Origin: Candidatus Woesebacteria bacterium
Lineage (GTDB): Bacteria; Patescibacteriota; Microgenomatia; UBA8517
Direction of reading: 5' to 3'
Assembly (NCBI GenBank): GCA_016432365.1
Contig: CP066686.1
Span: 192,355 to 256,354, forward strand
DNA: 64,000 nt
Both the position numbers and the translations under genes were made by a program. Below the pieces are notes generated by a model. That model did not search any database. It saw nothing but the letters and a program-made list of their open reading frames with translations, and had not been told where the DNA came from. The number at the start of each line of letters is the position of its first letter. Position 1 is the stretch's first letter. Positions 3,381-47,770 of this stretch are shown here, piece after piece.

Positions 3381-4061
3381 ATGGATAAGAAAACACTAAA
3401 AGCTGAGGAAAGGAAGCTTGAGGGCCGAAAAGTTAAAACACTTAGGCTAAATGGTTTTGTTCCGAGCAACATCTCGGGTAAAAAGATAAAATCGCTTTCT
3501 GTCCAAGTTAAATTGAGTGACTTCGAAACTATCTACAAAGAAGTTGGTGAAACCGGACTGGTTGAATTAGACGTAAACGGAGACAAGAGGCCTGTTTTGG
3601 TTCACAACGTCCAAAAGAACGCAAAAACTGACGAAGTAGTACATATTGATTTTCTTCAGGTAGATCTTAAGCAAAAAGTTGAGGCAGACGTCCCCGTCGA
3701 ACTTACCGGCGAATCTCCGGCCGAAAAACAGGCTTTGGGAACCGTTGTCCAGTATATTAACGAAATTAAAGTTGAAGCACTCCCGACAGACTTACCAGAG
3801 AAATTTGTTGTTGACACGTCAGAGCTGGCAGAGGTCGACCAATCAATTCTAGTCAAGGACCTTAAGGTTGATAGGACAAAAGTTGATATTAAGACTGGTG
3901 CCGATGACATTGTGGTCAAAGTTGAGCCGCCTCAAAAAGAGGAGGTAGTTGAGACGCCAATAGTTCCTGTTGGTGCAGACGGCGAAGTGGTAGCAGAAGG
4001 TGCACCAGTAGCTGAGGGTGAACAACCCGCTGAAACTTCTAAGGAAGAAACCAAGAGCTAG
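3381..4061 (+). CDS. rplY: 50S ribosomal protein L25 / general stress protein Ctc (long form)
   Basis: 226 aa; N-terminal L25 fold motifs (VHIDFLQV, VPVELTGESPAEKQ) and an acidic C-terminal extension typical of Ctc-type L25. Confidence 0.8.
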   Translation: MDKKTLKAEERKLEGRKVKTLRLNGFVPSNISGKKIKSLSVQVKLSDFETIYKEVGETGLVELDVNGDKRPVLVHNVQKNAKTDEVVHIDFLQVDLKQKVEADVPVELTGESPAEKQALGTVVQYINEIKVEALPTDLPEKFVVDTSELAEVDQSILVKDLKVDRTKVDIKTGADDIVVKVEPPQKEEVVETPIVPVGADGEVVAEGAPVAEGEQPAETSKEETKS

Positions 4062-4071
4062 AATCTAGCCG

Positions 4072-4341
4072 CTAGTAACTAGTGTCTAGTTTGAAGTTTG
4101 GGTCGATCTCCTTTACCTTATCCATTCTTCCTAGTTCTATCCAACCGGGGATATAGTTCGGGTGATTGGATGTAAAATCTGTCCAGAAAGATTGCTCGTC
4201 GCCAGGTGTCGAAACTCCCAACACTTTTGTCTTTAGTCTAAGAAAGACGCTAATATCAAACGCCGAAAGAAAAAGAACAAGTAATAATAAGGAGTAGATA
4301 ATAAACCTGACGAAGTTTTGTTTGACCTTTTTATCAGACAT
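4072..4341 (-). CDS. Small hypothetical membrane protein
   Basis: ORF 4072-4383; ATG at 4341 (MSDKKVKQNF...) followed by one TM helix; no recognisable domain. Confidence 0.35.
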   Translation of the reverse strand: MSDKKVKQNFVRFIIYSLLLLVLFLSAFDISVFLRLKTKVLGVSTPGDEQSFWTDFTSNHPNYIPGWIELGRMDKVKEIDPNFKLDTSY

Positions 4342-4356
4342 GTGATAATCTAAATT

Positions 4357-4770
4357 ATGGATCCGAATCACCCCATGCCGCAAGGGGAAAATTTACAGAA
4401 TTTACCACAAACTTCTCAGCAACCGATTACGCCATCTCCTGAAGCCGTTCCTCCTCAAGCGATGCCCACACCTCCGGATGGTTCTACTGCAGAACTTCCA
4501 CTTTCAGAACCACAGCAAAAAAAGGCTTCTCCTCTTTTAATTATTTCTATGGTTCTACTTGCAGTTTCTCTTGTAGTTGCTGTTGCCTACATGATTGGGT
4601 CAAAATTTTTTGCCGGTTCTCCAAAACGAGTTTCCACCCCAACGCCTGTAGCAACGCCGATACAAACTGTAGTGCCTACAAATTCACCTGAAGCAACTCC
4701 TTCACTTGCGCCGGAGGCCACCTCCAGTGCATCACCTTCCCCTTTGGCTACACCTTCGGCCACGCCGTAG
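4357..4770 (+). CDS. Pro/Thr/Ser-rich membrane-anchored hypothetical protein
   Basis: 137 aa; proline-rich N-terminus, one TM helix (LLIISMVLLAVSLVVAVAYMI), low-complexity PTPVATP tail. Confidence 0.4.
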   Translation: MDPNHPMPQGENLQNLPQTSQQPITPSPEAVPPQAMPTPPDGSTAELPLSEPQQKKASPLLIISMVLLAVSLVVAVAYMIGSKFFAGSPKRVSTPTPVATPIQTVVPTNSPEATPSLAPEATSSASPSPLATPSATP

Positions 4771-6898
4771 TTATTAGGAGGTCTGTTTTCCCCAGCTCCT
4801 TCCATATTTGTTCTGTAACAAAAGGCATGAATGGATGGAGGAGTTTAATAAATATTTCGAGTCCCCAGTTCAAATCCGCTTTACCAACTTTTCCCAGCTT
4901 TGCCTCTTCTATAGCCTGGTCGCAAAACCAGTGCCAAAACTCCTCATATAGTATTTCGGCAGATCGGTTCAAGTCGAACCTGTCCAGATATTCGGTTACA
5001 TCCTTGGTAATTTGAATTATCTTGTTTCTAAATTCGACATTCTTGTCTGCATCATTACTAAATTCTTTGACAAACCTTGCTGCGTTCCAGATTTTGTTTG
5101 AGAAGTTCCTCATACCGCGTACTTTCTCTTCGGAAAGTATTGCCTTACTACCCGCCGGAACACCATACAGTAGCGACATTCTTAAAGCATCTGCCCCATA
5201 TTTGTCTACAAATTCAAGTGGATTGACAACGTTTCCTTTTGACTTGCTCATTTTCACTCCTTTAGAGTCTGCAACCATGCTCCAAAGATAAACATTTTGA
5301 AAAGGAATTTCGTTTTTAAGGTATAGGCTAAACAAAATCATTCGGCTAACCCAAAACTTCAAAATATCAGAAAGCGTAGCCATGACATCCGTTGGAAAAC
5401 GTGTTTTGAATTCAGCATTTTTTAGAGTAACGGTTGGCCACTGACCCGATGAAAACCAGGTATCAAAAGTATCTGTTTCGGGGAGGTATTTCCCTTTTGT
5501 CGGTTTTTTGTCACAGACAACGTAGTTGGAACCGGCAGCTGCACGTACAGACTGTAAACCCTTTTCAATCTCTTCAAAATCAAAATCGTTAACATTCCCA
5601 AATTTTTTTTGTCCGTCTTTATCAATAAATGTAACCTGGATATCTGAATTTTCGTTAACTTCATACCAAACCGGAATTCTTATACACCAGACAATCTGTC
5701 TGCTTATCGGCCAGTCGTGCATAATTTCCAGCCAAGATAGCATGTGTCTCTTAAATTTTTTCGGATAAAAATTAATTTTGTCTTCTTTTACAACCTTAAT
5801 TACCTTTTTCTTAAGTTCGGTAACCTTTATAAACCAATTGGGGGTGGTCATGGGTTCAAGATCTCGACCGCATTTATAACAGGTTAAGACACTGTGATTA
5901 TAATTAGTGTCAATGTGGTCAATTAATCCTTTAGCTTCTAAATCTTTGACAACCTCTACTCTGGCATCTTTAACTTTCATTCCCGCATATTTACCGCCGT
6001 TATTCCGCACACGACCAAAAAGGTCGATTGCTGATATTATTGGGAGGTTGTGCTTTTTGGCAACCGCATAATCATTAGCGTCATGAGCAGGCGTAAGCTT
6101 TACAATGCCTGTTCCAAAGTCAGGATCAACAAAATCATCCCCGATAATTTCCATTTCAACCTCAGTTAAGGGGTTAAGGACTTTGGAACCGATTAGGTGT
6201 TTATTCTTATTATCCTCAGGATTTACCGCTAAATGAGTGTCGACAAAGATTGGTTCGGGTCTAGTCGTGGCAATAACAATATAATCTTTCTTATCTAAAG
6301 TGGGGTATTTTACATAATAAAGTTTGTCTATCCTTTCCAAGTGTTTTACTTCTAATTCCGCAAGAGATGTGCCGTCGTGAACACAGTAGTTGACTATATA
6401 GTTATCACGATAAACAAGTCCGTCAGCCTCCATTTTTATAAAAGTGTCATAGACCTCGGTAATAACGTCGGGGTCCCATGCATTAACGCTTCTACCCCAA
6501 TCTGCGGAAAAACCCAAACGTTTGAATTGGTGAAAAATAAGACTGGAGTTGTCTTTTACAAAATTATAGATGTTGTTATACAAAGTGGCTCTATCGAAAT
6601 CCATTCTACTTTTACCCTCTTTTGCCAGGTTCTTTTCATAAACATACTGAGTTTCAAATCCTGCATGGTCCATTCCCGGAATCCATAAAGCAGAGTAACC
6701 CTGCATACGTTTGTAGCGGATCAATATGTCGTCGACCGTATACATTGCGTGGCCAGCATGAAGCGAGGCGTTCGCATTTGGGGGAGGCATGAGTATTGTG
6801 TAAGGCTCTCCCGTCGCGCTGGGTTTAAAAGCGCCGGAGGTCTCCCATTTTTTGTAAATTTCTGATTCAAACAAATTGTGATCGTAAGCTTTGTCCAT
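4748..6898 (-). CDS. valS: Valine--tRNA ligase (minimal form, no C-terminal coiled coil)
   Basis: 716 aa; class I aaRS motifs PPPNANASLHAGHA (HIGH region) and KMSKSKGN; ValRS-like core WIPGMDHAGFETQ. Confidence 0.85.
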   Translation of the reverse strand: MDKAYDHNLFESEIYKKWETSGAFKPSATGEPYTILMPPPNANASLHAGHAMYTVDDILIRYKRMQGYSALWIPGMDHAGFETQYVYEKNLAKEGKSRMDFDRATLYNNIYNFVKDNSSLIFHQFKRLGFSADWGRSVNAWDPDVITEVYDTFIKMEADGLVYRDNYIVNYCVHDGTSLAELEVKHLERIDKLYYVKYPTLDKKDYIVIATTRPEPIFVDTHLAVNPEDNKNKHLIGSKVLNPLTEVEMEIIGDDFVDPDFGTGIVKLTPAHDANDYAVAKKHNLPIISAIDLFGRVRNNGGKYAGMKVKDARVEVVKDLEAKGLIDHIDTNYNHSVLTCYKCGRDLEPMTTPNWFIKVTELKKKVIKVVKEDKINFYPKKFKRHMLSWLEIMHDWPISRQIVWCIRIPVWYEVNENSDIQVTFIDKDGQKKFGNVNDFDFEEIEKGLQSVRAAAGSNYVVCDKKPTKGKYLPETDTFDTWFSSGQWPTVTLKNAEFKTRFPTDVMATLSDILKFWVSRMILFSLYLKNEIPFQNVYLWSMVADSKGVKMSKSKGNVVNPLEFVDKYGADALRMSLLYGVPAGSKAILSEEKVRGMRNFSNKIWNAARFVKEFSNDADKNVEFRNKIIQITKDVTEYLDRFDLNRSAEILYEEFWHWFCDQAIEEAKLGKVGKADLNWGLEIFIKLLHPFMPFVTEQIWKELGKTDLLITTAWPKV

Positions 6899-6950
6899 TT
6901 AAGTATTGGCTTGCCTCTACATGGCTGAATTATAGTCTAATCAGAGAAAA

Positions 6951-7991
6951 TTAGCCACCAATTTTTAGGTTGGGGATTCGGTCGATAGTTTTAGGATCAA
7001 CAAACTCACCTCTTTGGGCTTTAAAATAAGCTGCGACTCCGACCATTGCCGCATTATCTCCCGTCATATTCTTGGAATAAGGAAAGGACACATTTATGTC
7101 AAACTGCTTGCCTAGATGCCTTAACCTTTTTCTAAGTTCTATATTGGCTGAGACCCCGCCGCCAACGAGCAAATTTACGATTTTTAATTTACAATTTGCA
7201 ATTGAATACGAACAGACACGGAATAGGTGGGTAAAAGATGCGTCTTGAAAAGAGGAAGCAAGGTCGTAGATATTTTGTTTTGAAAGAGCTCCGTTTGTTT
7301 CTCTTATTTCCACAATCTTTCTCATCATTGAAGTCTTCAGTCCAGAATATGAAAAAATTTTTCTTTCTTCCTGACCAATCATTGGGATTGGGAGTTTATA
7401 TTTTAAAGGATCCCCCAACTTTGCAAATTTTTCTAATATGGCCCCTCCGGGGTAACCCAGGCCCAACATTCTTGCGGCTTTGTCGAGCGCTTCCCCCAGT
7501 GCGTCGTCCGCAGTTTGAGCCAGCGTTTCGTATTCTCCGATTTCGTTGATTTTAACAAGAATAGTATTTCCCCCCGACACAACCAACCCAAGCGCCGGAA
7601 ATTTAGAATTAAGAATTGAAAACTGAGAATTTGCGAATGGAGACAACACATGAGCCTCAAGGTGATTTACGGCAATTAATTTTTTGTTATGTTTTATAGC
7701 CAGCTCTTTTGCCTTTTTAATTCCAACTCCGAGTGCAATCGAAAGTCCCGGACCCACCGTTACGGCAATTGCATCGATTTTCTCTAATGGCTGTTGGCTA
7801 TTAACTAATGCTTTGTTTGTAACAAAGTCAATTCGCTCTTCGTGCATGCGTTGGGCAAGCGAGGGCATCACGCCTCCGAATTTCGCATGATCTTTTGCCT
7901 GTGACCAAATAATATTGGACAAAATTTTTGTGTCACTGGTAATAGCACAAGCTGTTTCATCACATGATGTATCGATAGATAGGATTGTCAT
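6951..7991 (-). CDS. tsaD: tRNA N6-adenosine threonylcarbamoyltransferase TsaD (Kae1/YgjD)
   Basis: 346 aa; ILSIDTSCDETACAI N-terminus and the conserved metal-binding ASKAT fold of the Kae1/TsaD family. Confidence 0.9.
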   Translation of the reverse strand: MTILSIDTSCDETACAITSDTKILSNIIWSQAKDHAKFGGVMPSLAQRMHEERIDFVTNKALVNSQQPLEKIDAIAVTVGPGLSIALGVGIKKAKELAIKHNKKLIAVNHLEAHVLSPFANSQFSILNSKFPALGLVVSGGNTILVKINEIGEYETLAQTADDALGEALDKAARMLGLGYPGGAILEKFAKLGDPLKYKLPIPMIGQEERKIFSYSGLKTSMMRKIVEIRETNGALSKQNIYDLASSFQDASFTHLFRVCSYSIANCKLKIVNLLVGGGVSANIELRKRLRHLGKQFDINVSFPYSKNMTGDNAAMVGVAAYFKAQRGEFVDPKTIDRIPNLKIGG

Positions 7992-8494
7992 ATTTTATGA
8001 GAAAACAGCAAGGCAGTTGCGTTTTCTTCAGTTCTGTAATAAACACCAATGTTTTCAGGACGGTAAGGGCGTTTGCTATTGACTGCAAAGGCATTTTTTG
8101 GAAGTTTAATACTTCCTGAACCTCTGTAGTCCTTATAAATAGATATATGGGGTAAGAATTCGATCTGCCTACCGGGAGTAATACCAAAATTTTTTTCAAA
8201 AAGCTCGTGCAACTCTTCTATCTCTTTTGTATTTTCAATTTTTAGAACTAACGTTTTTCCGTGTACTCCAACAATATCGAGTTCCTGGGGTCTTAATATG
8301 GTGGAAACAATTAGATTTCTGTTGGCTAGAATTACGTCTTTAACTTGACGAAGTTTGTCGTCGTCAACCTCCGTAAGCATGTGTATGGTAAAATGCGCAA
8401 ATTTTTTATTTGGGTTTATTGTCTTAATATATTTAAGTAAGGGGCCTTCTTTAATCGGAAAAGCTACATATGATTGTTGGTAAATTTCTTTCAT
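7988..8494 (-). CDS. 2H phosphoesterase superfamily protein (LigT/ThpR-like RNA 2',3'-cyclic phosphodiesterase)
   Basis: 168 aa with two H-x-T/S-x motifs (HFTIH.. and PHISIY); overlaps tsaD by 4 nt, so operonic. Confidence 0.6.
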   Translation of the reverse strand: MKEIYQQSYVAFPIKEGPLLKYIKTINPNKKFAHFTIHMLTEVDDDKLRQVKDVILANRNLIVSTILRPQELDIVGVHGKTLVLKIENTKEIEELHELFEKNFGITPGRQIEFLPHISIYKDYRGSGSIKLPKNAFAVNSKRPYRPENIGVYYRTEENATALLFSHKI

Positions 8495-8497
8495 TTT

Positions 8498-9568
8498 TTA
8501 GATATTGCCCCAACTAATAAGCCGTTGATTCATATTTTTTCCGTATCTAATTTTTACCCAAACAACAATTGCTTGGTCCCTAAATTTTCTAATTACATCT
8601 ACAACTCGATCCGCCCATTCAATGCTCATTACCGTATTTTTGTTTTCAACCATTTTCAAAAACCCAAGCGTTTCCATTTCGGTCGAGTTAGACAGTCTCC
8701 ATGCGTCAAAGTGTTCTAAAACAAATTTTGAATTTGAAACTTTATATTCTTCGACCAAGCTGAAAGTAGGAGAAACTACAAGTTCTGTTACTCCCATCGC
8801 TCGTGCCAGCCCTTTTGTAAATTGTGTTTTCCCGGTTCCCATCTCGCCTTCCAGAGCAAAAATAATAGATCGTTTTCCGCTATAGTTTTCATATTTTTGC
8901 CAAAGCTCCTTACCTACATTTTGGGTGTTTTCCTCACTACTGCTTAAAACTTCATTTTCATCTTTTAGTCTTATATACCCCTGACGAAGTGTAATTGCTT
9001 CATCAAACGTAGTATCAATTACCGTTGACGGTTCGTTATGTGGGAGTTCACCAACGTCGATAATCAAGTCGACAAGCTCCTTTTGCTTTTTGGAAACGTT
9101 ATCTAGGATGTCAGTTATTTTATATGGTCGCTTTTGATAAGAACTGTTGGCGCTAGTTGCCACTATTGGCCTATCAAATTCTTTTATTAATTTCAACAAA
9201 TTAGGATAGGCTGGAATTCTGACCCCTAGTGTTCCGGCCTCGGATTCGATACCTTTTGCAACTTTCCTTTTACCGACAGATATTACCGTGACGGGGCCAG
9301 GGAGAAAGGTGTTATAGAGATTTTTAGCAGTGGTATTTAATTCGACGTATTTTTCTGCCATCTCTTGATTGGCGCACATAATTGCGTACGGTTTGCCAAA
9401 CGGACGCTTTTTGTATGTATTCAATTTTTCGACGGCGATATTATTTGATGAGTCGACGGCCACTCCGTAAACTGTTTCGCAGGGAAATATCACAAGTCCG
9501 CCTTGTTTTAGAACATTGATTATTAATTTGTTATCAAACTTGTTTATGACCTTCATGATGGGGTTCAT
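8498..9568 (-). CDS. Fusion protein: N-terminal L-threonylcarbamoyladenylate synthase (TsaC/YrdC domain) + C-terminal TsaE (YjeE) P-loop ATPase
   Basis: N-terminus has YrdC motifs (VIFPCETVYGVAVD, GTLGVRIP, ATSANSS). C-terminus has the TsaE Walker A GEMGTGKT, SPTFSLVEEY and HFDAWRL motifs. Confidence 0.8.
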   Translation of the reverse strand: MNPIMKVINKFDNKLIINVLKQGGLVIFPCETVYGVAVDSSNNIAVEKLNTYKKRPFGKPYAIMCANQEMAEKYVELNTTAKNLYNTFLPGPVTVISVGKRKVAKGIESEAGTLGVRIPAYPNLLKLIKEFDRPIVATSANSSYQKRPYKITDILDNVSKKQKELVDLIIDVGELPHNEPSTVIDTTFDEAITLRQGYIRLKDENEVLSSSEENTQNVGKELWQKYENYSGKRSIIFALEGEMGTGKTQFTKGLARAMGVTELVVSPTFSLVEEYKVSNSKFVLEHFDAWRLSNSTEMETLGFLKMVENKNTVMSIEWADRVVDVIRKFRDQAIVVWVKIRYGKNMNQRLISWGNI

Positions 9569-10178
9569 CGTCCTTAAAGTGTTTATATTCGTGTTTTATA
9601 GCTCTAAAAATCACAAAGACGGCTATCATCAGAAATATCCAAGCCAGTATTCCGATGCTGCTCACAACATTTTTTAAATCCTCCTTTTGATATCCGGCAA
9701 AGTATCCTATTAAAGTCATCAATGAAACCCAGCTTAAAGAAGCACCTATTGCATACAAATTAAATTTCCAGAAATTATACCTCTCGACTCCCGCAATATA
9801 GCTTACCCAAAATCGTGTTAAGTTTGCCATCATGGAAGTTGTCAAAATTACCGCGCCATTTTTGTGCAAAAGTTGCTTGGCAAATTTGGCACTTCTTTCC
9901 TGATGAAGTTTCTTAACAAGCCACATTCCGGTTTTTTTACCAAGCAGATAAGCGAGTAAAAATGCCAGCCAAGCTCCAAGTGTTCCTATAATAATTACGG
10001 GGATTACCGGCAACTGCTGATCGCCGTTGGAAATGTAGCCGGCTATAATCAAAATTCCCCCGCCTGGTACCGCCCATGCCAGAGGTGTGATTTCAATTAA
10101 AGACCCCAAAAAAATGATTAGGTAGCCGTATTGTTCAAAAAGAACGGTGACTGTGTTTAAAACCAAAACTATATCCAT
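9534..10178 (-). CDS. DedA family (SNARE-associated/VTT domain) membrane protein
   Basis: 214 aa; multiple TM helices; DedA signature around GYISNGD...NLTRFWVSYIAGVERYNFWKF. Confidence 0.8.
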   Translation of the reverse strand: MDIVLVLNTVTVLFEQYGYLIIFLGSLIEITPLAWAVPGGGILIIAGYISNGDQQLPVIPVIIIGTLGAWLAFLLAYLLGKKTGMWLVKKLHQERSAKFAKQLLHKNGAVILTTSMMANLTRFWVSYIAGVERYNFWKFNLYAIGASLSWVSLMTLIGYFAGYQKEDLKNVVSSIGILAWIFLMIAVFVIFRAIKHEYKHFKDDEPHHEGHKQV

Positions 10179-10190
10179 GAGGCTATTATA

Positions 10191-11960
10191 CTAGATTTTT
10201 GTTCCTCGGAGATAAACTGCCGCCCAAGGGCGATAGTTGCTGACAAAAGTCTTTTCGAATATTACTTCGCCGGCACGCTTAACAGAATAGTTAAACGAGA
10301 CCTTGGCCCCGGTGGCGGCAAAATCTATCTGTTTAACGACCCCTAACGGGAGAGTGGGATCATCCTGATAGATCGTTGGAAGTGCGGGCACAATGTTTGA
10401 GACAACGGGTTTGGTAATTGAGGCAACTCTCCCGTCGCTTGTACCATAGATATCGAAGACCAGTGAATAATGTTTGGAGTCGGCTTTTGCCTCAATTAAT
10501 ATGTAGTTTTGTGTATTATTAATAAACTTAAAATCCGGAGATGGTCCATAAACCGTTGCATCGAGTCCGGGAGATGAATTTTGTTCATAGTACCCGACCT
10601 TGTATGCATGTGCGGCCCGTTCAATAATCGGAAGCCCGGCATTCAAAATCGCTCTAAAAAGAGTTGTTGAAACTTGACACACACCACCGCCGTCTCCGAG
10701 AATCGTTTTCCCCCCAGAAATTATATATGCCTGCTGATATCCGGTAAAAGCTGATACGTCCCCTAAAGTATCGTTAAATGAAAAAGTCTCACCTGGAGCC
10801 ACCAATGTTCCGTCAATTCGACTTGTAGCCAAGGCAACGTTGTAAACACGGGAAGGAATCGAGTGATAGTAAGTTGAAATACCGTGTCCGATTAACTCTT
10901 TTATACCAAGATTATTGACATTTTCAGTTGTCACATCGGGGGGTGTACGCTTAACAGGCAAGTCGAATGACGTTTCCGATTGATCGCTGGTAACCAAAAG
11001 ATTAAAAGAAGCAATAATTTTATCTTTTGTTTCTTCAGTGTTAACAGCAATGCCATCGAGAGCAGGTAGGAACTCTGTTACTTTTCCCCCATTAAAATCA
11101 AATTTAGGATTTTGTGGATTTCTATTTATTTTGTCGGAAATGCTTATCGTTTTTGAGTAAATCACTTCATCGTAAAATCCTCCTTTAAGATTTATGAATT
11201 TTAATAAGTCGGCGTCCGTTAAAACAAACTTATTAGATTCAAAATTTATTGTTATTTTTTTACCGACAAACTTTTGCACGAGAGCTTTGACAGTTTCCGC
11301 TTCTTGATCATCTAAAGATATATCTACTTTTTTGATGGGTATAGAAATTTGTTCTTCTGATGAGTACGCCAAACTCCTCCCGATTTCGGCTCTAAGTTTT
11401 TGCTGGTCAATTTCTGTGCCCGCCTTTCCTTTAAACACGTTAACCTTTCCGTTAACAATCTTTACAGATGGGGGAATTGGTTCTATATAATCTTGTCCGG
11501 CAATTACAGACAATATTTTTGTAAGTTTTTCTTCGTTCAGCTTCGTTGTTAGGCCAATAAATGTGGTATTACGTAGCAAATCTACTCTTTTAATCCAATC
11601 AAAAAAAATATTCCCCGTTCGGGCCAGATAATATGCTCTAATGGCCGAGTCGCTGAAGTTGTATGACAAATCAATGTCTTTTGTCTTTATTTCAAAAAAC
11701 TGAGTTCCGTCAGTCAAAACCAATTTTTTTGGAACGACAATTCTGTTAGTTAATAATATACCAGCCTCATCAATTTTTAAGCCACCCAGGTTGGTTTCTC
11801 CAACAAAAGTATTAGGGTATATTTTATCCGTGAATTTGTAATTATAGACTGCAAACATCCCTAATAAGATAGACAATAATATTAGAAGAGGTGTCGTCAA
11901 TCGTAATTTTTGCATATACCAAAAAAGGTCTTTGCCCGCCTGACTTTCATATGGTAACAT
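10191..11960 (-). CDS. VanW family protein (N-terminal TM anchor, C-terminal VanW domain)
   Basis: 589 aa; VanW-like core GETFSFNDTLGDVSAFTGYQQAYIISGGKTILGDGGGVCQVSTTLFRA. Confidence 0.7.
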   Translation of the reverse strand: MLPYESQAGKDLFWYMQKLRLTTPLLILLSILLGMFAVYNYKFTDKIYPNTFVGETNLGGLKIDEAGILLTNRIVVPKKLVLTDGTQFFEIKTKDIDLSYNFSDSAIRAYYLARTGNIFFDWIKRVDLLRNTTFIGLTTKLNEEKLTKILSVIAGQDYIEPIPPSVKIVNGKVNVFKGKAGTEIDQQKLRAEIGRSLAYSSEEQISIPIKKVDISLDDQEAETVKALVQKFVGKKITINFESNKFVLTDADLLKFINLKGGFYDEVIYSKTISISDKINRNPQNPKFDFNGGKVTEFLPALDGIAVNTEETKDKIIASFNLLVTSDQSETSFDLPVKRTPPDVTTENVNNLGIKELIGHGISTYYHSIPSRVYNVALATSRIDGTLVAPGETFSFNDTLGDVSAFTGYQQAYIISGGKTILGDGGGVCQVSTTLFRAILNAGLPIIERAAHAYKVGYYEQNSSPGLDATVYGPSPDFKFINNTQNYILIEAKADSKHYSLVFDIYGTSDGRVASITKPVVSNIVPALPTIYQDDPTLPLGVVKQIDFAATGAKVSFNYSVKRAGEVIFEKTFVSNYRPWAAVYLRGTKI

Positions 11961-11984
11961 TTAGTTGGGTTAATATCCTAACAT

Positions 11985-13370
11985 ATGCCTCCACAAAACA
12001 GTCCACAACCACAACCGCAAGCACAACAACCTGTAAAACCGGCAATACTTCCACCGCTTCCAAAAAGGGAGTTCCCTAAAGTAATTATTTGGATAGGGCT
12101 GGTCGTTGTGGTTCTTATATTGGCCTTTGTTATTTTTAGTCTTTTGACCAAATCTAAAACAAAATCGTCCGCAATTGTATGGTGGGGTTTATGGGAGGAC
12201 GATGCCAATGTTTCTTCTTTGATTTCGGCGTATGAATCTTCTCATCCCAACGTAAAAATTACATATGTAAAACAGTCCCCTCAGGATTATCGGGAGCGGT
12301 TGACCAACGCTCTTGCCAAAGGCACGGGTCCGGACATATTTAGATTCCACAATACGTGGGTTCCTATGTTCAAAAATGATTTAGATGTTCTCCCTCCCTC
12401 TGCGATGAGCCCTGCTGAATATGCAAAAACTTTTTATCCCGTTGCCTCGTCCGACCTCACAAGCGGTACGGGAATAGTGGGAATTCCTCTAGAGTATGAT
12501 GCGTTAACACTCTATATAAATGAGGACATCTTCAATAAGGCCGGAAAAACTCCGCCAGCCACTTGGGACGAGCTTAGAAACCTAGCAAGTCAGTTGACTG
12601 TCAAGGACGACCAAGGAACAATAACTCAATCGGGAGTAGCGATGGGGAGAACTGAAAATGTGGATCATTGGCCGGAAATTTTGGCACTTCTCATGATTCA
12701 GAACGGTGTCGATTTATCAAACCCTACGGGAAAAATTGCCGAAGACGCGCTCAGTTTTTTTACATATTTTGCTTCAACTGACGGAGTTTGGGATGTCACG
12801 CTTCCCCCTTCCACTCAGGCATTTGCTTCAGGAAAGCTCGCTATGTATTTTGGGCCAAGTTGGAGAACCTTCGAGATCTCTCTGGCAAATCCTAATTTAA
12901 AGTTTAAAACGGTCCCGATACCACAGCTACCAAAAGATAATCCGAACCAGCCGGATATTACATATGCAACATATTGGGCTGAGGGTGTATGGTCCAAAAG
13001 CACCAAAAAGGCCGCAGCCTGGGATTTCCTTAAATTTTTAAGTACCCAGGACTCGGCCCAGAAGCTGTTTCAGAATGAATCAAAAGTAAGGTCTTTCGGC
13101 GAACCTTATTCAAGAATCGATATGGCGAACCTTTTGAATACACATCCCATTTTAGGATCAATTATCACTCAAGCCCCTGGAGCTGCTAGCTGGTATTTAG
13201 CCTCGCGCACTTTTGATGGTCCCACAGGAATTAATTCACAAATGGCCAACTATTTTGGCGACGCAGTTAATTCCATGTCCGAAGGTAATACAACCCCAAC
13301 GAAAGCACTAGAAGCTGCGGCTCAAGGGGTAAGTCAGGTATTGGTTCAATATAGACTTATCGCAAAATAG
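11985..13370 (+). CDS. Extracellular solute-binding protein (ABC-type family 1), membrane-anchored by an N-terminal Pro/Gln-rich segment plus TM helix
   Basis: 461 aa; SBP_bac_1-like core (GPDIFRFHNTWVPMF..., GIPLEYDALTLYINEDIFNKAGK); no adjacent permease or ATPase genes. Confidence 0.7.
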   Translation: MPPQNSPQPQPQAQQPVKPAILPPLPKREFPKVIIWIGLVVVVLILAFVIFSLLTKSKTKSSAIVWWGLWEDDANVSSLISAYESSHPNVKITYVKQSPQDYRERLTNALAKGTGPDIFRFHNTWVPMFKNDLDVLPPSAMSPAEYAKTFYPVASSDLTSGTGIVGIPLEYDALTLYINEDIFNKAGKTPPATWDELRNLASQLTVKDDQGTITQSGVAMGRTENVDHWPEILALLMIQNGVDLSNPTGKIAEDALSFFTYFASTDGVWDVTLPPSTQAFASGKLAMYFGPSWRTFEISLANPNLKFKTVPIPQLPKDNPNQPDITYATYWAEGVWSKSTKKAAAWDFLKFLSTQDSAQKLFQNESKVRSFGEPYSRIDMANLLNTHPILGSIITQAPGAASWYLASRTFDGPTGINSQMANYFGDAVNSMSEGNTTPTKALEAAAQGVSQVLVQYRLIAK

Positions 13371-47380: not shown

Positions 47381-47770
47381 ATGGAAGAAATAGGAAGACC
47401 GATTATAAAGAGTTTCAAAGATTTAGAGATTTACACGGAAAGTTTTCAACTTCAGATAGAGATTGAAGAATTACTAAAAACATTTCCAGAACTAGAGAGG
47501 TATCTATTGGTTGATCAAATGAGAAGGTGTTGCCGGTCAATTCCCGCAATAATATCAGAAGGATGGGCGCTGCGTGATTCGGTGAAGGAGTTTAAGAATT
47601 TTTTACGAAGAGCTTACGGAAGTAATTGTGAAATGATAAACCACCTTATGCTTGCGAAGTATAAGAGTTATATAAAAATGGATGGTTATGCAGACGAACT
47701 TATAAAAAGATATGAAATATTGGGAATGAAAATCACTAAACTTCGAAACAATTGGCAGAAATTTAAATAG
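47381..47770 (+). CDS. Four-helix-bundle protein of the 23S-rRNA intervening-sequence family (TIGR02436-like)
   Basis: 129 aa; IKSFKDLEIYTESFQLQIEIEELLKTFPELERYLLVDQMRRCCRSIPAIISEGWAL...FKNFLRRAYGSNCEMINHLMLAKY fits the family pattern SF.DL.V......L...IY.LT..FP..E.Y.L..Q.RRA..SI..NIAEG. Confidence 0.65.
   Translation: MEEIGRPIIKSFKDLEIYTESFQLQIEIEELLKTFPELERYLLVDQMRRCCRSIPAIISEGWALRDSVKEFKNFLRRAYGSNCEMINHLMLAKYKSYIKMDGYADELIKRYEILGMKITKLRNNWQKFK

Follow-up and report, generated by a model that had tools for sequence, protein, structure and literature searches.

The tRNA modification N6-threonylcarbamoyladenosine-37 (t6A) starts from threonine, bicarbonate and ATP, the substrates of threonylcarbamoyl-AMP (TC-AMP). 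In two accounts of the pathway, TsaC makes TC-AMP and TsaD transfers its threonylcarbamoyl group to A37 (PMC10484737; PMC6009658). The same accounts describe TsaE, with ATP, binding at the TsaD-TsaB interface, where it competes with tRNA and resets TsaD by hydrolysis (PMC10484737; PMC6009658). It is acknowledged that the path of TC-AMP from TsaC to TsaD is still to be explained: the route is described as unknown, and transient spatial proximity has been put forward but not demonstrated (PMC10484737). Here we describe a locus that bears on this point, found in a 64,000-nucleotide stretch of a Candidatus Woesebacteria genome (contig CP066686.1, positions 192,355 to 256,354; hereafter the window). 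Between positions 6951 and 9568, the minus strand holds three co-directional open reading frames (ORFs) of 356, 168 and 346 aa, encoding a TsaC-TsaE fusion, a candidate 2H phosphoesterase and TsaD, respectively (Table 1). With a probability of roughly 80%, we read this as a t6A operon in a compact form typical of its lineage, consisting of a bifunctional TsaC-TsaE, tsaD and an accessory 2H gene, in which TC-AMP synthesis would be tethered to its site of use.

The 356-aa protein consists of two domains, each of which is recognized well above curated cut-offs. The N-terminal half matches Sua5_yciO_yrdC (PF01300; E = 2e-44, 151.5 bits against a Pfam cut-off of 25.1) and the C-terminal half matches TsaE (PF02367; E = 9e-30, 103.7 bits against 26.6). 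The NCBIfam models agree, as TIGR00057 (L-threonylcarbamoyladenylate synthase) scores 154 bits against 123.2 and TIGR00150 (TsaE) 89.7 bits against 60.1, whereas the generic P-loop families AAA, KAP and dNK remain below their cut-offs on this protein. A SUA5 domain finds no Pfam or NCBIfam match in the fusion; its place as C-terminal half is taken by TsaE. That half contains GEMGTGKT (residues 241-248), SPTFSL (266-271), HFDAWRL (286-292) and EW (317-318), and we take a Walker A motif combined with SPTF, HxDxY/WRL and EW to define TsaE. An earlier reading of this DNA, made from the letters alone and referred to here as the original prediction, had quoted the first three of these motifs and proposed a single-polypeptide TsaC-TsaE fusion beside tsaD. 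All three motifs are located in the 356-aa ORF, and the fusion itself is borne out by the uninterrupted ORF, by Pfam and NCBIfam and by the predicted fold.

Across an alignment of 21 fusions, the mean column identity is 71% and the signature residues of both halves are invariant. In the TsaC half these are K53, R55, S139 and N141 (numbering of the 356-aa protein), forming the K-R-S-N tetrad that discriminates TsaC from its paralogue YciO (PMC4615747). In the TsaE half they comprise the Walker A, SPTF, HxDxWRL and EW motifs, and the junction helix SEENTQNxGKELWQKY, which opens the TsaE domain, is likewise unchanged in all 21. Sequence matches to chains in the PDB split at the same boundary, with residues 10-216 matching Sua5/TsaC/YciO chains and residues 222-330 matching the TsaE chains 5np9, 1htw and 6n9a_E, the last of which belongs to the Thermotoga maritima TsaB2D2E2 complex. 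An AlphaFold2 (AF2) model of the fusion has a predicted local distance difference test (pLDDT) score of 87.3 and a predicted template-modelling (TM) score of 0.71, with confidence dipping to ~60 only at residues 191-200. When the modelled domains are compared with known structures by Foldseek, the N-terminal domain superposes on YrdC (1hru; TM 0.79) and YciO (1k7j; TM 0.82), and the C-terminal domain on TsaE (1htw, TM 0.75; 5np9, 0.72; 6n9a_E, 0.67).

The fusion is not peculiar to this genome. A homologue search over 5.8 billion proteins returned 3415 relatives, and all of the best 120, on which a domain check was made, have both Pfam domains (64-100% identity, 329-375 aa). The same 356-aa ORF also occurs in an independent Logan assembly, made from another sequencing run, where the 168-aa gene and tsaD again come after it. 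In a scan covering GTDB species with a single genome each, which gave 578 confirmed matches, the loci of the best 80 were inspected and about 63 of them encode full-length fusions. The hosts are Woesebacteria, Amesbacteria, Chisholm-, Shapiro- and Roizmanbacteria and other Microgenomates; the Parcubacteria-type loci (Kuenen- and Komeilibacteria) and those of ordinary bacteria among the best 80 have a stand-alone TsaE. Conservation in related genomes, which the original prediction had suggested checking, is therefore evident across Microgenomates. Many of the species-representative metagenome-assembled genomes (MAGs) that bear these loci (L011, L012, L015, L022, L023, L047-L050 and others) have evidently unreliable record titles, such as 'uncultured Gammaproteobacteria', 'Pseudomonadales', 'Alphaproteobacteria', 'archaeon' and 'Aenigmatarchaeota'.

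This leaves next to no room for the fusion being spurious, whether as an assembly or frameshift artefact, as a TsaC domain joined to a generic P-loop NTPase or as a YciO paralogue joined to TsaE. An artefact is ruled out by the continuity of the ORF, by its recurrence in the Logan assembly and by the two-domain architecture of the best 120 of the 3415 homologues, as well as by the invariant junction of the aligned fusions. The other two possibilities are ruled out by the TsaC and TsaE model scores, with the TsaE equivalog model above its cut-off and generic AAA and KAP below theirs, by the KRSN tetrad and by the TsaE motifs. The TsaE identity in the original prediction thus survives comparison with generic P-loop families, and the frameshift check found none.

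The association of the fusion with tsaD is equally regular. Using hidden Markov models (HMMs) built here, we find tsaD immediately downstream on the same strand in all 64 distinct fusion loci with enough contig. In 49 of these, the two genes abut or overlap, and in the remaining 15 an insert of 0.2-1.2 kb separates them; the position between the two genes is hereafter called the slot. The wider synteny is conserved as VanW - DedA - fusion - (slot) - tsaD - class-I aminoacyl-tRNA synthetase (aaRS) - L25. The database label of the fusion protein is simply "L-threonylcarbamoyladenylate synthase", and a TsaC-TsaE fusion is not mentioned in the main t6A reviews, in a paper that searched for TsaC/TsaD fusions or in the results of a full-text literature search; literature searches on t6A, TsaB or TsaE in the candidate phyla radiation (CPR) or Patescibacteria likewise returned nothing relevant. 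The fusion is a variant of a known pathway, common in databases and undescribed in the literature searched.

In the window, the three genes are closely packed. The fusion and the 168-aa gene meet at ...ATC TAA AAA ATG..., where the stop codon (8500-8498) is followed by a 3-nt spacer and an ATG at 8494, so the 4-nt overlap that the original prediction had placed here is wrong. At the next junction (...ATA TGA C...), the 4-nt overlap it had placed between the 168-aa gene and tsaD is present as ATGA at 7991-7988. Upstream, the 3' end of a DedA/VTT gene overlaps the fusion start by 35 nt (window 9534-9568), or by 23 nt when counted from the start annotated by NCBI on this 1.08-Mb Candidatus Woesebacteria contig, which is Met5 (nt 9556) and gives a protein of 352 aa. 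The same DedA/fusion overlap recurs in L001-L003. One long co-directional block extends from VanW and DedA through the fusion, the 2H gene and tsaD to an aaRS gene. A scan of positions 4000-12500 found no terminator between the three genes, with promoter and terminator counts at chance level. The tsaD product scores 333 bits with TIGR03723 (cut-off 296) and keeps the metal ligands HxxxH (110-114) and Asp312. As judged from these motifs, the locus is predicted to encode three t6A enzymes with intact catalytic residues, two of them fused.

The architecture suggests how the fusion might act. Because TsaE docks on TsaD, joining TsaC to TsaE would tether the source of labile TC-AMP to its consumer. 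The short linker of ~10 residues would place this source at the entrance of the TsaD active site exactly when tRNA is absent. Resetting of TsaD and reloading with TC-AMP could then be coupled in one encounter, and the labile intermediate would not need to diffuse. The view of the original prediction, in which the fusion would connect synthesis with transfer, is plausible and consistent with the literature.

The 168-aa protein encoded by the middle gene is harder to place. A word-indexed search with this protein returned only four homologues; inspection of the slot in other fusion loci added three more distant ones with 27-36% identity (L009, L015, L022). When seven family members were scanned, all seven matched PF13563 (best E = 2.9e-6) and four matched LigT_PEase (1e-7). 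A profile of the family compared with chains of solved structure finds PH0099 (1vdx; 4.8e-7), 2fyh (3e-6) and Bacillus subtilis YjcG (2d4g; 7e-4), the first two of which we recognize as LigT-like 2H proteins; matches of the same profile to polyubiquitin are summed weak repeats. In an exhaustive HMM search, only 28 relatives were found among 1.84 billion representatives. In an alignment of 22 members, no columns other than H34, P115 and H116 are invariant, and both histidines lie in the 2H motifs of the window protein, HFTI (34-37) and HISI (116-119). The protein is probably a divergent 2H phosphoesterase, with catalysis predicted from these motifs. By analogy with the family, for which this is the default activity, it would most likely be a 2',3'-cyclic phosphodiesterase acting on nucleotides or RNA ends.

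The C-terminal end of this protein is unusual. Residues 152-168 (window 7988-8041), with the pattern YYRTEE(G/N)ATALL(F/Y)S(H/K)KI, are far better conserved than the remainder. Homologues with 47% identity elsewhere share the motif without change, and its end falls within the 4-nt overlap with tsaD. A role in interaction could account for this conservation, as could a constraint imposed by the start of tsaD translation.

The 2H family is confined to one place. In all 13 loci examined that have a family member, the gene lies between the fusion and tsaD or, at a contig end, directly upstream of tsaD. Among the 64 distinct fusion loci from the genome and context searches, five have it; of the 59 that do not, 49 have an empty slot and 10 have unrelated genes there. 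These occupants include a DHDPS-like gene, an NTase/HEPN-like pair and a HIT-like gene on the opposite strand, as well as ORFs of unknown identity, and in various Woesebacteria the slot is a hot spot at which unrelated genes have been inserted. In a neighbour-joining tree built from the fusions, the loci with the 2H gene group mainly within a single Woesebacteria subclade, and one is an outlier. An interpretation of the 168-aa gene as a singular recent insertion was dropped, as the profile searches had uncovered the 28 representatives and the constant position. Since 59 of 64 fusion loci do without it, the 2H gene is an accessory and not a core component. The simplest reading is that it is old, fast-evolving and restricted to a clade, having been passed on at this position and lost or replaced on repeated occasions. 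On the same reading, its arrangement would make it co-expressed with the t6A genes yet dispensable for them.

Several points weigh against the operon as we interpret it. It is the domain architecture alone that suggests tethering or channelling. In known systems, TsaB forms half of the docking site of TsaE, and it was not found near the fusion loci. To search for it, an HMM of the TsaD family and one of a shortened TsaB described below (mini-TsaB) were run against the ORFs of at least 40 aa in the window and in all fetched loci; in the 64-kb window and within 10 kb of the 64 distinct fusion loci, neither TsaB nor mini-TsaB was found and only tsaD was matched. The same models recovered TsaB in five control loci with a stand-alone tsaE (L077, L079, L082, L084, L085), and Pfam scans of 35 window proteins also found no TsaB, as the original prediction had noted for the window. 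In the model for T. maritima, one site on TsaBD is contested by TsaE and tRNA (PMC10484737), so a TsaC that is permanently tethered must still permit release of TsaE. Finally, the accessory gene is weakly matched when taken singly. The 168-aa protein alone scores below threshold with the 2H models (PF13563, 19.4 bits against 27; TIGR02258, 21 against 65.7), and its AF2 model, built with four sequences, is poor (pLDDT 50.7). The eight best Foldseek matches of this model in the PDB are all 2H proteins, among them the AKAP18 central domain, a plant CPDase, Escherichia coli LigT and USB1, but they are weak (E 0.02-0.4, TM ~0.37). The 2H assignment of the original prediction is therefore upheld by the family profile (1vdx, 2fyh, 2d4g) and by both motifs, and not by the single protein, which stays below Pfam and NCBIfam cut-offs.

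A related lineage shows that TsaB can be reduced. In a locus from a Levyibacteria MAG (Microgenomates), tsaE and tsaC are separate genes, tsaE coming first, and are followed by a gene for a 107-aa protein with the TsaB signature GPGSFTGLRVG. This protein belongs to a family of 96-119 aa, the mini-TsaB family, which corresponds to the N-terminal half of TsaB with GPGSFTGLRVG kept and has 952 matches. All six mini-TsaB contexts examined share the order ftsE-ftsX-M23-LTD-tsaE-(tsaC)-miniTsaB; all six come from genomes with a separate tsaE and none from a fusion-bearing contig. A truncated TsaB is not mentioned in the t6A literature examined. In this Levyibacteria-type sister lineage, TsaB is, from its predicted proteins, trimmed to its N-terminal domain.

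For the fusion lineage, either TsaB is encoded elsewhere in the genome or it has been lost. Were it lost, TsaD could homodimerize in the manner of mitochondrial Qri7 and the TsaE part of the fusion could dock at the TsaD-TsaD interface, such that two polypeptides would suffice. The absence of TsaB and mini-TsaB around all 64 fusion loci, with HMMs that recover TsaB in the controls, points this way, as do the sister lineage in which TsaB is already down to a ~100-aa N-terminal domain and the restriction of the six mini-TsaB contexts to genomes with a separate tsaE. However, bacterial TsaB is often unlinked to tsaD and tsaE, and the search covered ~6% of this genome (64 kb of the 1.08-Mb contig) and 20-kb windows of the others. 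Moreover, TsaE is known to contact TsaB, and a survey of 9176 bacterial genomes reported no bacterium that keeps TsaE without TsaB, the only genomes lacking TsaB being two Mycoplasma that lack both (PMC4615747). Given that survey, loss of TsaB would be notable, and we regard it as possible but, on balance, doubtful. The fuller proposal, in which fusion-bearing Microgenomates make t6A with only TsaC-TsaE and TsaD, and one subclade is assisted by the 2H phosphoesterase, is slightly less probable again. If true, it would be the first bacterial system with TsaE but without TsaB, and a naturally tethered machine: the TC-AMP synthase would be brought to the active site by the very ATPase that resets TsaD. 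The position of the 168-aa gene between a tsaE-encoding gene and tsaD invites yet another solution to the TsaB question, namely that its product is a non-homologous structural replacement of TsaB; tsaB occupies the equivalent place in control loci L084, L079 and L077, as in tsaE-tsaB-(rimI)-tsaD operons. This is very improbable, as the gene is missing from most fusion loci, the protein has no similarity to the TsaD/TsaB (ASKHA) family (E = 9) and its profile and fold signals lead to 2H proteins with both catalytic histidine motifs invariant. A hidden TsaB in the 168-aa protein was rejected for these reasons.

The 2H protein could also be a functional partner in t6A synthesis, either processing the 2',3'-cyclic-phosphate ends of damaged tRNA, ahead of modification or following it, or binding or hydrolysing the adenylate intermediate. 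The fusion-2H-tsaD order is retained in all 13 loci examined, even where identity falls to 23%, the gene is tightly packed between its neighbours, its catalytic histidine motifs are under purifying selection and the family, with 28 representatives among 1.84 billion, is not known outside the slot. Against this, most fusion loci lack the gene and ten carry unrelated genes in its place, the loci that have it cluster mostly in one subclade, and we know of no step in t6A chemistry that involves a cyclic phosphate. As the whole neighbourhood from VanW to L25 is itself syntenic, the fixed position can reflect plain vertical inheritance and alone is no proof of a functional link. We consider such a partnership unlikely. 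The original prediction had seen in this gene a hint of an RNA-end processing step tied to tRNA modification; the association is real in all 13 loci, but it is not a general component, as 49 of 64 fusions abut tsaD directly and 10 are followed by unrelated genes. An RNA-end step is therefore not required for the t6A pathway. The compact operon with a bifunctional TsaC-TsaE, tsaD and a clade-restricted accessory 2H gene thus remains our preferred reading.

Table 1. Positions of the t6A genes, their domains and the related genes in other loci (window coordinates unless a locus number is given).
Feature	Location	Strand	Description
tsaC-tsaE fusion gene	8498..9568	-	356-aa uninterrupted ORF; stop TAA 8500-8498; both domains above curated cut-offs
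TsaC/YrdC (threonylcarbamoyl-AMP synthase) domain	8978..9514	-	residues 19-197; tetrad K53-x-R55 + S139-x-N141
Short inter-domain junction	8942..8977	-	residues 198-209; lowest model confidence (~60) here; followed by the SEENTQNxGKELWQKY helix
TsaE P-loop ATPase domain	8570..8941	-	residues 210-333; Walker A, SPTFSL, HFDAWRL, EW
Accessory 2H (LigT-like) phosphoesterase, probable	7988..8494	-	168 aa; H34-F-T-I, H116-I-S-I; conserved C-terminal YYRTEENATALLFSHKI
tsaD (tRNA A37 threonylcarbamoyltransferase)	6951..7991	-	346 aa; H110-x3-H114 + D312; start overlaps 2H stop by 4 nt
DedA/VTT-domain membrane protein gene	9534..10178	-	upstream of fusion; synteny context, outside t6A chemistry
2H-bearing loci (13)	window, L001, L009, L015, L022; L094, L095; six metagenome loci		L095 only 23% identical
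Slot inserts	L004 7064-7954, L013 9025-10002, L054 7686-8192, L048 8485-9303, L049 11014-11838, L047 11036-11449, L050 4038-4508, L023 11115-12056		
mini-TsaB genes	L072 11406-11729, L088 8001-8303, L090 8001-8324, L092 5001-5357, L093 5001-5342, L097 10001-10360		

The fusion occurs across a class-level group and always beside tsaD, and so provides natural Rosetta-stone evidence for TsaC working at the TsaD-TsaE complex. It also supplies a construct, already made by nature, on which channelling could be tested structurally and kinetically. Should these genomes truly lack TsaB, the minimal t6A machinery of bacteria would be redefined, with a bearing on TsaB and TsaE as antibacterial targets. 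The small slot-specific 2H family and mini-TsaB may further help to show how organisms with ultra-small genomes pare down a universal pathway.

Other features of the window lie outside the module. Directly downstream of tsaD (4748-6898) is a class-I aminoacyl-tRNA synthetase of 716 aa with matches to tRNA-synt_1, a LeuRS-type editing domain and Anticodon_1; by our own estimate, this length looks short for a synthetase of the Val/Ile/Leu type. A gene for a 23S rRNA-intervening-sequence protein (PF05635, 5e-24) is found at 47381-47770, and an Rfam scan of the window detected only tRNA-Cys and no rRNA. At the window edge (83-601), a small RNase H / RVT_3-like protein of 172 aa with a TTG start is encoded upstream of a large DUF4012 gene.

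The closest described relatives of the locus are the bacterial systems of E. coli, B. subtilis and T. maritima, in which TsaC works with TsaB-TsaD-TsaE. The same three families are present here with all signature motifs, and the chemistry is presumably the same, with TC-AMP synthesis followed by transfer to A37. The main differences are that in the characterized systems TsaC and TsaE are separate and TsaC stands outside the TsaBDE complex, whereas here they form one polypeptide, and that the neighbourhood here has no tsaB gene. In overall build, the fusion resembles Sua5/TsaC2, a two-domain TC-AMP synthase of ~340-350 aa with an N-terminal TsaC domain, and the Sua5/TsaC2 chains 6f87 and 9d3h are its best whole-chain Foldseek matches. 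The C-terminal domain differs, being a TsaE ATPase here and a SUA5 domain there.

Fusions of coupled partners, of the Rosetta-stone type, are also seen in archaeal Kae1-Bud32, TobZ/HypF, Pandoravirus TsaN (TsaD-TsaC-SUA5-TcdA) and Mycoplasma genitalium TsaC/HemK. TobZ and HypF combine a YrdC-like and a Kae1-like domain that form a channel for the adenylate intermediate (PMC10484737; PMC4615747). The present fusion departs from these t6A-pathway fusions in that the synthase is joined to the regulatory ATPase and not to the transferase; coupling to TsaD would proceed through docking of TsaE, unlike the covalent channel of TobZ/HypF. The Levyibacteria-type operon, tsaE-tsaC-miniTsaB, belongs to the same candidate superphylum and similarly has tsaE and tsaC as neighbours and a reduced auxiliary machinery. 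In that operon, however, the genes are separate, tsaE precedes tsaC, the ~100-aa TsaB N-terminal domain is adjacent and tsaD is located elsewhere. The 168-aa protein, for its part, shares with the LigT/ThpR and YjcG 2H proteins the two H-x-T/S motifs, a length of ~170 aa and a predicted β-α-β two-lobe pattern of secondary structure. It differs from them in being very divergent, below curated cut-offs, with a C-terminal YYRTEE(G/N)ATALL of its own, and in belonging to a tiny family confined to a single genomic slot.

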